Assembly: GCA_016707785.1 (NCBI GenBank)
Contig: JADJGZ010000014.1
Coordinates: 4,225 to 68,224 of the forward strand
Source: Bacteroidales bacterium
GTDB lineage: Bacteria; Bacteroidota; Bacteroidia; Bacteroidales; UBA4417
Direction: 5' to 3'
Length of the DNA stretch: 64,000 nt
Shown here: positions 4,916 to 36,628 of the stretch, piece by piece
Position numbering within the stretch: position 1 is the stretch's first letter
Layout of the letters: the number at the start of each line of letters is the position of its first letter
The notes under the pieces: model-generated
What the model saw: the letters and a program-made list of their open reading frames with translations, nothing else
Databases searched by the model: none
Told to the model about the DNA's origin: nothing
Program-made: the position numbers and the translations under genes

Positions 4916-5012
4916 TGGTGGAGAATAAGGGATTCGAACCCTTGACCCCTAGCTTGCCCGGGGGGCGTTAGTGCAAAGCTAGTGCTCTAGTCAACAACTG
5001 AGCTAATCCCCC
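4916..5012 (-). tRNA. tRNA-Ala(UGC)-like gene, 97 nt and aberrant (17-nt insertion after the anticodon loop, oversized D-loop)
   Basis: The minus strand reads GGGGGAT TA GCTC AGTTGTTGACTA GAGC A CTAGC TTTGCAC [TAACGCCCCCCGGGCAA] GCTAG GGGTC AAGGG TTCGAAT CCCTT ATTCTCC ACCA. The G3:U70 pair, UGC anticodon, T-arm and encoded CCA are canonical. The D-loop is 12 nt and lacks the GG pair. Confidence 0.7.
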
Positions 5013-5098: not shown

Positions 5099-5224
5099 AT
5101 TAATTCCTTTTCCCTCAGGGCAGCGCCCTCACTCACTCGCTTGGGTTAACAATAAAAACATGAAGTCAACACAGTAGTGAATATCCTTCCCGTCATTACT
5201 GACGGGACCAGAATAAATCACTCT

Positions 5225-35751: not shown

Positions 35752-35874
35752 TTCCGGAATGCTAACCAGCATTGTGTTCGTAGAGTCTGGCAACAGGATT
35801 GGAGGTGAAGCCTTTGTAAAATTGGCCAGAGGTTTTTGATTTGATGATGTATATGTAAAACATGATAAATTAAA

Positions 35875-35901
35875 TAAAAAAAGCCCTCAATTTGAGGGCT
35901 T
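35875..35901 (-). terminator. Terminator after the distal tRNA-Asp fragment (also usable for A2M on the plus strand)
   Basis: AGCCCTCAA-T-TTGAGGGCT with T7 on the minus strand and TTTT on the plus strand. Confidence 0.7.
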
Positions 35902-35904
35902 TTG

Positions 35905-35981
35905 CGGTCCGGACGGGACTCGAACCCGTCCCGTCTCGTCACCAGTGACGAGACGGGATGCCATGCACGTATTCTAACCAA
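35905..35981 (-). pseudogene. tRNA-Asp-derived 3' fragment (D-loop to 3' end) with the anticodon-arm 3' half and variable region replaced by a perfect GC hairpin
   Basis: The minus strand reads TTGGTTAGAATACGTGC ATGGCAT CCCGTCTCGTCAC-TGG-TGACGAGACGGG AC GGGTTCGAGTCCCGTCCGGACCG. The flanks are identical to the intact tRNA-Asp, but there is no 5' acceptor strand or D-stem. Confidence 0.6.
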
Positions 35982-36258
35982 TTTCTTGTTTATTAAAGTC
36001 TTTAACAGAATTCATCTCCGATTGAATCAATTTCTCAATAGACCTAACTTTCAGTCGCTTAAGCCGAAGTTCTTCAATTAAGGCGTCCCTTTTGGTTTCA
36101 TAGGAATGCAAATAAACCAGCACCCATGGACCTTTAAGTGCAGTATGACGACTTTTGTTGGAGTTATGTTCAGTAAATCTTCTCAAAGGATCCTCAGAAA
36201 CTCCTTTGTAGTATTCATTGACAGACTGTGAAAAAATGATATAAACGTAATAAGGCAT
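35974..36258 (-). CDS. Small GIY-YIG nuclease family protein (94 aa)
   Basis: MPYYVYIIFSQSVNEYYKGVSEDPLRRFTEHNSNKSRHT..KGPWVLVYLHSYETKRDALIEELRLKRL: the GIY (YVYII) ... YIG-like (YYKG) ... R ... H-N ... E pattern is present. The track ORF start (36369) lies inside the tRNA-Asp gene and is rejected. The stop codon TAG lies inside the tRNA fragment D-loop (GGTTAGAAT). Confidence 0.8.
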   Translation of the reverse strand: MPYYVYIIFSQSVNEYYKGVSEDPLRRFTEHNSNKSRHTALKGPWVLVYLHSYETKRDALIEELRLKRLKVRSIEKLIQSEMNSVKDFNKQEIG

Positions 36259-36281
36259 AATAAATAATGAATAGTATAAAT

Positions 36282-36305
36282 GAAAAAAGGGAGCAAATGC
36301 TCCCT
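36282..36305 (-). terminator. Terminator directly after tRNA-Asp
   Basis: The minus strand reads GGGAGCA-TT-TGCTCCC followed by T6. Confidence 0.6.
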
Positions 36306-36310
36306 TTTTG

Positions 36311-36384
36311 CGGTCCGGACGGGACTCGAACCCGCGACCCCGTGCGTGACAGGCACGTATTCTAACCAACTGAACTACCGAACC
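36311..36384 (-). tRNA. tRNA-Asp(GUC)
   Basis: The minus strand reads GGTTCGG TA GTTC AGTTGGTTA GAAT A CGTGC CTGTCAC GCACG GGGTC GCGGG TTCGAGT CCCGT CCGGACC G. This is a complete cloverleaf. Confidence 0.9.
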
Positions 36385-36426
36385 AATATTTTAATGAACG
36401 CTGTTAATTTTATTTCAGTACTTGTT

Positions 36427-36501
36427 GTTGGGACTCGAACCCGTCCCGTCACTCGTGACGAGATGTCAGGCACGTATTCTAACCAACTGAACTACCGAAC
36501 C
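36427..36501 (-). pseudogene. tRNA-Asp-derived 5' copy lacking the anticodon-stem 3' strand and the acceptor 3' strand
   Basis: The first 35 nt are identical to tRNA-Asp (through G34). They are followed by ACATCTCGTCACGAGTGACGGGAC, then GGGTTCGAGTCCC, then unrelated AACAACAAG. Confidence 0.55.
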
Positions 36502-36532
36502 AATATTTTAAAGAACTCTCGTTAAAGGACTG

Positions 36533-36540
36533 CAAAGATA
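36533..36540 (-). promoter_or_regulatory. -7 promoter box of the tRNA-Asp cluster
   Basis: The minus strand reads TAtcTTTGCAGTCC, about 32 nt upstream of the first tRNA-like copy. A boxA-like GTTCTTTAAAA follows at 36506-36518. Confidence 0.45.
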
Positions 36541-36628
36541 AAACAATTTCAGGATTGTAAAAATAATTGATTGGATTTTTGGAAAAAAACTGGAAATATT
36601 ATCTATTGTTCTAAAAATGAGTACTTTG

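Follow-up and report, generated by a model that had tools for sequence, protein, structure and literature searches.

Ssn nucleases (cd10448) and their hairpin repeats (NTS/SRM) were described by Chenal et al. (2025; PMC11893778). SsnA from Neisseria meningitidis is a 94-aa single-domain GIY-YIG protein with the catalytic residues Y6, Y17 and E64. It binds its hairpin repeat NTS (CGTCATTCCCGCGMAVGCGGGAATCYRG) only as single-stranded DNA, does not bind RNA and cuts a few nucleotides upstream of the hairpin; cutting is controlled by the three bases 5' of the palindrome and binding by the C after it (PMC11893778). The ssn genes are typically flanked by their hairpins (PMC11893778). The present study concerns a tRNA-Asp locus on the minus strand of a 64,000-nt stretch of DNA from a Bacteroidales bacterium (contig JADJGZ010000014.1, positions 4,225 to 68,224; this whole stretch is referred to as the window), in which a small GIY-YIG nuclease gene lies between an intact tRNA-Asp gene and a partial, hairpin-bearing copy of it. 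The locus is best explained as a conserved tRNA-Asp-linked cassette in which a small GIY-YIG nuclease of a single domain is paired with its cognate DNA hairpin. Among known systems the Ssn family appears to be the closest match, and the embedding of such a nuclease-plus-hairpin system in tRNA sequence is apparently undescribed.

REP elements, a group of dispersed extragenic repeats, go together with RAYT, a domesticated IS200/IS605 HUH transposase. As proposed for the window, a small nuclease gene is flanked by hairpin repeats that it recognizes in single-stranded form, and nuclease and repeats persist together in the chromosome over long times, but the fold is HUH-Y1 instead of GIY-YIG and REPs are not embedded in tRNA sequences. 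SegB of the phages T4 and T6 is a free-standing GIY-YIG homing endonuclease encoded in a tRNA gene cluster; its breaks in tRNA sequence are repaired by recombination, leading to tandem amplification of the unit of tRNA plus segB (PMC2330249, PMC13096335). The window shares with SegB a GIY-YIG nuclease encoded among tRNA genes. SegB, however, lacks a hairpin partner and is a larger phage enzyme of the I-TevI/Seg clade that has two domains and cuts double strands; the window nuclease is without phage relatives and lies closer in structure to UPF0213/Slx1. Lastly, UPF0213 (YhbQ/YazA) and Slx1 proteins are the nearest to the window nuclease in solved structure and in sequence, but the UPF0213 homologues from a plasmid collection (L089-L091; L numbers denote individual loci) have neither TCYC hairpins nor tRNA copies alongside. 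No account of the cassette was found in the literature on GIY-YIG nucleases with tRNA, Bacteroidetes, COG2827, YhbQ or UPF0213.

In minus-strand order the locus consists of a promoter box, a hairpin-bearing partial tRNA-Asp copy (copy C), the intact tRNA-Asp gene, a terminator, the 94-aa GIY-YIG gene, a second partial copy (copy A), another terminator and a GIY-YIG fragment. A preliminary description of the window had listed the promoter box, a boxA-like box, both partial copies, the intact tRNA gene, the nuclease open reading frame (ORF) and the terminators, and all are present on this strand.

36533..36540, minus strand: candidate Bacteroidota-type -7 promoter motif TATCTTTG upstream of copy C, read from the sequence like the box that follows it
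36521..36527, minus strand: putative boxA-like CTTTAAC between the promoter box and copy C
36430..36501, minus strand: copy C (X-H-y''), made up of tRNA-Asp nt 1-37, a hairpin and then CGGGTTCGAGTCCC, ending after the T loop
36310..36384, minus strand: intact tRNA-Asp(GUC) (ARAGORN; Rfam RF00005, 65.7 bits)
36284..36309, minus strand: intrinsic terminator AAAAAGGGAGC-ATTT-GCTCCCTTTTT after tRNA-Asp
35974..36258, minus strand: gene of the 94-aa single-domain GIY-YIG nuclease (Pfam PF01541, E = 1.6e-14)
35976-35974, minus strand: TAG stop codon of the nuclease gene, inside the D-loop sequence (GGTTAG) of copy A
35904..35981, minus strand: copy A (x'-H-Y'), made up of tRNA-Asp from the D loop to A37, a hairpin, the T arm and the 3' acceptor strand
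35879..35903, minus strand: intrinsic terminator after copy A
35762..35863, minus strand: 33-aa N-terminal fragment of a second, divergent GIY-YIG gene (Pfam E = 4.6e-8; tblastn)

The 33-aa fragment, which the preliminary description did not mention, is 36% identical to the 94-aa nuclease and is broken off beside the end of a convergent 1802-aa ORF; it is the remnant of a second cassette unit. Several of the flanking elements recur in related loci: a TAnnTTTG box also stands ahead of the array in L001, L003, L006, L008, L070 and L087, the boxA-like box is kept in L001 as gtcctttaacgg, and the terminator after copy A is also found in L010, behind the module homologous to it. Between the terminator of tRNA-Asp and the nuclease start codon there are only 25-30 bases, rich in A/T, and no promoter box of the nuclease's own was seen on reading them. 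The tRNA-Asp promoter probably drives the nuclease gene by read-through of the terminator. The stop codon of the nuclease is indeed the TAG of the tRNA D-loop, as had been noticed, but this arrangement is clade-specific and incidental, the genes in L001 and L005 stopping ahead of the D-loop.

Copy C and the true gene have a 15-nt leader and the first 35 nt in common (50 nt, 98%). The preliminary parse of copy C placed the start of the foreign sequence after G34. Because G34 is followed by a change of T35 to A and then by CA, the foreign hairpin starts only after A37, which is also where it starts in all relatives; its sequence is TCTCGTCA-CGAG-TGACGGGA, at 36463-36444. The 5' part of copy A, TTGGTTAGAATACGTGC-ATGGCA-T, carries the changes C32 to A and T35 to G and leads into a 12-bp hairpin, CCCGTCTCGTCA-CTGG-TGACGAGACGGG, at 35957-35930 with the core TCTCGTCA/TGACGAGA at 35953-35934. 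GTCA, TCYCG...CGRGA and C are shared by both hairpins. The two copies carry the same element, as had been suggested, and both the GIY-YIG nuclease and the GC-rich hairpin are tied to rearranged tRNA-Asp copies. Chance is excluded as a source of the repeats at the locus, with six matches of the hairpin pattern against 0.10 expected and four of GGGTTCGAGTCCC against 0.01 expected. A complete cloverleaf is absent: both copies lack positions 38-48, and in addition nt 1-16 are missing from copy A and the 3' acceptor strand from copy C. ARAGORN and Rfam called neither copy a tRNA, the only call in the region being 36384-36310, and Rfam at permissive thresholds found nothing in the region besides the true tRNA-Asp.

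A further peculiarity of the pseudo-copies concerns the middle anticodon base. T35 is repeatedly replaced by G or A (CCTGGCA, CCTGACA) while the neighbouring bases are conserved; the changes lie at 36466 and 35962 in the window and are seen in many loci.

The 94-aa protein affiliates with the GIY-YIG superfamily (PF01541) by its motifs and the conserved residues Y6, Y17, G19, R27, H31 and E63, and Pfam finds the GIY-YIG domain alone in it. Its AlphaFold model has a predicted local distance difference test (pLDDT) score of 92, with the elements in the expected beta-beta-alpha-beta-alpha order. In a Foldseek search the nearest solved structures were the UPF0213 proteins 1ZG2 and 1YWL, followed by Slx1, whereas I-TevI matched far more weakly (E = 0.9). 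The ratio of nonsynonymous to synonymous substitution rates (dN/dS) was 0.09 among Flavobacterium-type orthologues and 0.10-0.20 between the window nuclease and its close relatives; the nuclease is under purifying selection. No match was obtained in NCBIfam, PADLOC or PHROGs and no relatives among GenBank phages or IMG/VR, and a plasmid collection yielded only three matches, all of the UPF0213 type. With no DNA-binding domain, no phage relatives and an affinity to UPF0213/Slx1 rather than to I-TevI, the protein is not a classical homing endonuclease.

A classical free-standing homing endonuclease of the Seg/I-TevI type would cut the double-stranded tRNA-Asp gene of naive genomes and be copied in via the tRNA halves as homology arms, the hairpin copy representing a cleavage-resistant allele. 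Such a history would agree with a nuclease gene that has a native tRNA copy on one side and a disabled one on the other, whichever comes first, with partial copies homologous to the tRNA on both sides of the hairpin, and with the phage enzyme SegB, which resides among tRNA genes and cuts in them. We consider it unlikely nonetheless. A protein of 94 aa in which Pfam and AlphaFold show no C-terminal DNA-binding or other second domain, and which Foldseek places near UPF0213/Slx1, fits that type poorly, and relatives of the cassette type are absent from PHROGs, phages, plasmids and viral contigs. Moreover, the syntenic relatives include no empty site, the presumed target is kept in the intact tRNA beside the gene, and a covarying hairpin is needless for a mere resistance allele.

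Database records of this nuclease family need some caution. Many ORFs are annotated too long and run through the tRNA upstream or the hairpin module downstream (P0007, P0013, P0074, P0111, P0128 and others), giving tell-tale peptides such as RGRGFESRP and ACHLVSDETGSSPVRTAK. From such translated N-terminal extensions tRNA-Gly had been guessed as the neighbour of some relatives; this was ruled out, the peptides encoding tRNA-Asp.

The cassette occupies a syntenic site after a 959-aa PD-(D/E)XK gene and before the convergent 1802-aa ORF. In L001, whose nuclease is 80% identical, there are three copy-C units, the intact tRNA and two or more nuclease units. One Bacteroidales metagenome-assembled genome (JADJHD010000010.1) has the two flanks of the window's locus, L009 and L010, 31 kb apart; L009 comprises at least five units, and in L010:1-1500 a nuclease copy interrupted at codon 28 abuts remnants of IS21-family istA/istB. 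In L006, a copy-C unit stands behind a PD-(D/E)XK homologue of only 40% identity. Copy number alone varies among the syntenic relatives L001, L006 and L009/L010, and none of them has an empty site. A scan of metagenomes with the junction sequence gave six more loci of the same design in other neighbourhoods.

A genome scan with a narrow nuclease alignment (A2) extended the comparison to 78 loci spanning Flavobacterium, Bacteroidales, Prolixibacteraceae, Chitinophagales, Saprospiraceae, Cytophagales and others. In 49 of the 63 evaluable loci a tRNA-Asp(GTC) lies upstream of the first nuclease copy on the same strand, its end at a median distance of 58 nt. The nuclease gene follows the native tRNA, as in the window, or stands between a disabled copy and the native tRNA (L074, L051, L086). 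Two or more nuclease copies were present in 18 loci and hairpin units upstream of the first nuclease copy in 14; one to six copy-C-like units precede it in L001, L003, L006, L070, L082 and L087. The x'-H-Y' module was found within 160 nt after at least 61 of 92 nuclease copies. Rfam at the gathering threshold reported only tRNAs in eight related loci. The preliminary description had supposed that a nuclease cassette and/or a small GC-hairpin element rearranged a tandem tRNA-Asp array. The locus is no local accident of a mobile cassette in such an array; the module is conserved, with syntenic relatives alike, no empty site and a phylum-wide linkage to tRNA-Asp.

The partial copies could also be att-site scars of integrase-mediated island integration, parts of a tRNA that is split or contains an intron, or the result of a chimeric assembly. 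Att scars typically include partial 3' copies of a tRNA, and the divergence starts at 37/38, the canonical intron site. However, the ORF list shows no integrase gene nearby and 5' copies occur too. Nor can a full tRNA be assembled from the two halves, since neither has positions 38-48, with the 3' strand of the anticodon stem and the variable loop. An assembly chimera, a concern already raised in the preliminary description, is excluded since JGI, ENA and NCBI assemblies that are independent of one another, complete isolate genomes among them, show the same layout. Taken together, explanations of this kind are the least probable that we considered and hardly credible.

In one related locus the pseudo-copy does reach the level of a tRNA call. 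The full-length hairpin-bearing pseudo-tRNA-Asp at L070:1388-1466 was called tRNA-SeC(tca) by ARAGORN and scored 44.3 bits with the Rfam tRNA model, above the gathering score; this locus holds no native tRNA-Asp.

The module x'-H-Y' runs from about the D loop of the tRNA to A37 (CCTGTCA) and continues with the hairpin H, CGGGTTCGAGTCC and usually the 3' strand of the acceptor. H begins right after A37 (CTGTCA) and takes the place of positions 38-49, which read CGCACGGGGTCG in the true gene. Its form is always TCYY...RRGA, and the stem type differs by lineage (TCTCGTCA, TCCCGTCA, TCTCGTC, TCCCCAA, TCTCGCC, TCCCGGC and TCCTCACG). In an alignment of 24 sequences, 97% of the cells of the stem were paired and six of the eight pairs had changed on both sides; none of 500 shuffles reached the stem score, and slid controls paired in 37-56% of cells. 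Across 43 distinct stems, 95% of the pairs were Watson-Crick. The hairpin loops are unconstrained and accept insertions of 35-45 nt. The flanks are conserved as well: GTCA precedes 49 and GTCC 11 of the 117 distinct hairpins, and C follows 74 of them. A perfect TCYY hairpin was present in 69 of the 78 loci, at 0.71 per kb, compared with two sites over the whole 64 kb of the window. The module served to build a covariance model (R1), which scored 69.1 bits with copy A and 49.3 bits with copy C and matched throughout the related loci. With its exact replacement of positions 38-49 and its covarying stem, the hairpin is not an insert of random kind.

The anticodon arm is not the only part of a tRNA that the hairpin replaces. 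In the tRNA-derived sequence of a genome the same hairpin stands elsewhere after the T loop, in place of the acceptor strand, and is polymorphic within Flavobacterium. It stands instead of the T arm in L059, with at least 12 tandem units, and instead of the 3' strand of the D stem in L074 and L050. Four more distant homologues were inspected, and all four showed the hairpin design on other tRNAs:

L086: tRNA-Val(GAC), with the anticodon arm replaced by TCCCGAT-TGC-ATCGGGA
L092: pseudo-tRNA-Pro(GGG), with the T arm replaced by TCCCGAT-GCA-ATCGGGA
L093: tRNA-Ala(GGC) copies, with the anticodon arm replaced by TCCCGAA-GGCG-TTCGGGA
L088: a tandem of at least eight nuclease units, each accompanied by TCCCGA-CTAG-TCGGGA and by the 3' part of a type II tRNA

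A palindrome, TCCCGATAGCTATCGGGA, whose stem equals that of the arm-replacing hairpins in L086 and L092, was observed inside a longer repeat (…gcggttaaa…) in intergenic DNA of Flavobacterium (L013, L016, L017, L018, L021, L027 and L041).

Passive decay, that is, an old tandem tRNA-Asp duplication in the course of degeneration with an unrelated small nuclease gene beside it by chance, would draw on the facts that tandem tRNA genes are common and that slippage does yield partial tRNA copies. It fits poorly with junctions (after A37 and before the T stem) and a hairpin type that recur unchanged across the phylum and on other tRNAs, with the covariation of the hairpin, and with arrays of identical units, which indicate recent amplification. 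We regard it as very improbable.

Two minor observations concern the sequence of the hairpin itself. The clade's 5' arm, TCCCGTC, is identical to tRNA-Asp positions ~60-66, which comprise the 3' strand of the T stem and the beginning of the acceptor strand (compare window 36321-36333 with the hairpins; also L001:5303-5322). Because of this identity the 3' arm of the hairpin is able to pair with either partner, and the identity may hint at the origin of the hairpin. In addition, a perfect hairpin TCCCGTCA-GTAA-TGACGGGA lies at 5188-5207 on the minus strand, 17 nt past the 3' end of the 16S rRNA. Its 8-bp stem is the same as that of the hairpin of copy A in L001, and no further perfect TCYY hairpin occurs in the window outside the locus; it is without the GTCA 5' flank and the following C.

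An alternative is that the hairpin-bearing tRNA-like sequences act as RNA, either as a 3' untranslated region or processing module of the nuclease mRNA, or as a repeated RNA that restrains the nuclease as in the type III toxin-antitoxin layout of repeats, terminator and toxin. The units are on the sense strand of the tRNA transcription unit, some loci have upstream arrays followed by a terminator and then the nuclease, copy C contains a G:U-type intermediate pair, and the RNA of copy A folds well (z = -2.6). On the other hand, neither copy A nor copy C has all the parts that a tRNA-like fold requires, the pairing of GGTT with the 3' acceptor strand does not covary, and the protein is a GIY-YIG nuclease without a PADLOC match rather than a ToxN-type toxin. 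SsnA, moreover, does not bind RNA, as noted above. The behaviour of the x' segment likewise speaks for DNA: its unpaired anticodon-stem 5' strand carries the variant of the host tRNA (ACATG 20, ACGTG 12, ACCTG 9), and because it tracks the host gene although it has no pairing partner, it points to DNA exchange. A role as RNA thus appears improbable to us. A mini-cloverleaf in copy A, formed by the D-loop GGTT with the 3' acceptor strand, was also considered and ruled out, the pairing ignoring the acceptor-stem variants of other lineages.

The tracking of host tRNA variants fits continuing exchange with the functional gene, and the arrays bear witness to amplification. L070 contains five identical X-H units and then one full-length X-H-Y'; arrays of identical units were further found in L082 (four), in L043 (five, without any ORF) and in L020 (at least five nuclease units). 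The units that lie upstream break off within the T loop or just past it.

Set beside SsnA, the window nuclease is likewise 94 aa long with a single GIY-YIG domain and has Tyr6, Tyr17 and Glu63 (Glu64 in SsnA). Oriented hairpins lie on both sides of the gene, in the window at 36463-36444 and 35957-35930. Like NTS (CGTCATTCCCGCG...GCGGGAATC), they have a TCCCG...CGGGA core after GTCA(T) and before C, and the stems differ between lineages, as expected of co-evolving nuclease-hairpin pairs. In contrast to Ssn, the hairpins lie within sequence derived from a tRNA, where they stand in for one of its arms, and they do not match the published SRM pattern; moreover, the cassette keeps to a single tRNA gene instead of being spread as hundreds of copies, and tandem arrays are common.

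By analogy with Ssn, we propose that the locus encodes an Ssn-like nuclease whose hairpin is embedded in tRNA-Asp-derived repeats, the partial tRNAs being products of recombination, and we give this proposal somewhat better than even chances of being correct. The nuclease would bind a sequence-specific hairpin only in single-stranded DNA. The recognized structure would be TCYCG...CGRGA with GTCA before it and C after it, cut a few nucleotides on the 5' side; the anticodon loop CTGTCA would provide the 5' flank and the hairpin would stand in place of tRNA positions 38-49. Since the hairpin sits inside tRNA-Asp-derived sequence, the predicted cut would fall in DNA homologous to the neighbouring functional tRNA gene. 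Recombination or gene conversion, with the tRNA gene or other units as partners, would repair the breaks; SegB offers a precedent for tandem amplification of tRNA genes by a GIY-YIG nuclease through recombination. Such repair could yield hairpin-converted upstream tRNA copies (copy C), tandem arrays of nuclease plus hairpin-tRNA 3' module (copy A and the truncated second nuclease gene) and ORF-less units, while one intact tRNA-Asp would be kept because it is needed. Single-strand specificity, cleavage position and a dependence of the rearrangements on the nuclease are thus what we infer by analogy, and they carry less certainty than what the sequences show: the anatomy of the locus, its conservation, the covariation of the hairpin, purifying selection on the protein, changes of copy number between relatives and the tracking of the host tRNA by the pseudo-copies.

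Several points weigh against this proposal. The published SRM pattern HGTCWY...RNCYNB had no match in the window or in any of the loci, while the positive control matched, and the main text of the Ssn paper contains no mention of tRNA or Bacteroidota (PMC11893778). For these reasons we call the cassette Ssn-like and have not filed it as a member of Ssn. The nearest solved relatives of the nuclease are UPF0213 and Slx1 proteins. The covariation fits a DNA hairpin and an RNA hairpin equally, with five G:T against two A:C pairs. No empty site is seen and the cassette is apparently inherited vertically within genera, so that ongoing mobility is not demonstrated. Furthermore, the proposal leaves unexplained why the hairpin replaces tRNA arms at structural boundaries, and why the module is confined to one tRNA locus, unlike the genome-wide NTS repeats of Neisseria.

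If the proposal is true, the cassette represents a natural context for Ssn-type nucleases outside Neisseria, stable beside an essential tRNA gene and conserved across Bacteroidota, and it points to a chromosomal equivalent of the tRNA gene amplification that SegB drives. It yields a concrete substrate prediction, CTGTCA plus the lineage-specific hairpin. The stems TCTCGTCA, TCCCCAA, TCTCGCC, TCCCGAT and others would then mark co-varying enzyme-hairpin pairs and possible single-strand DNA tools. There are practical consequences for annotation and assembly as well, with pseudo-tRNA-Asp copies sometimes called tRNA or, as in L070, tRNA-SeC, nuclease ORFs over-extended through the tRNA, and nuclease matches near a contig end in many loci. 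More speculatively, and with considerable doubt on our part, Ssn-type nucleases and their hairpins might form a general class of selfish elements resident in tRNA genes of several phyla. The hairpin would take the place of one arm of a duplicated tRNA, the tRNA halves would serve as universal homology arms, single-strand cleavage would drive gene conversion and tandem tRNA amplification, and the Ssn repeats themselves could be tRNA-derived.

A second unusual tRNA gene of the window had been tentatively linked to the same mechanism in the preliminary description. The tRNA-Ala(UGC) of the rRNA operon (4919-5012, minus strand) has an enlarged D loop and 17 extra nt, CTAACGCCCCCCGGGCA, right after the anticodon; it scores 53 bits with the Rfam tRNA model and is missed by ARAGORN. 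The insert position (37/38) is the same as the hairpin junction. A common mechanism is nevertheless unsupported because this is an insertion into an otherwise complete tRNA, it does not have the form TCYC...GRGA, and no nuclease gene lies nearby.

Lastly, a conserved motif of about 100 nt without an Rfam match at the gathering score, GTTGTGTTGT...GGTTTAGTAGTTAGACCAATGAAAAGC followed by a terminator, occurs in Flavobacteriia downstream of tRNA-Asp or inside cassette units (L016:984-1085; also L028, L036, L039 and L067).

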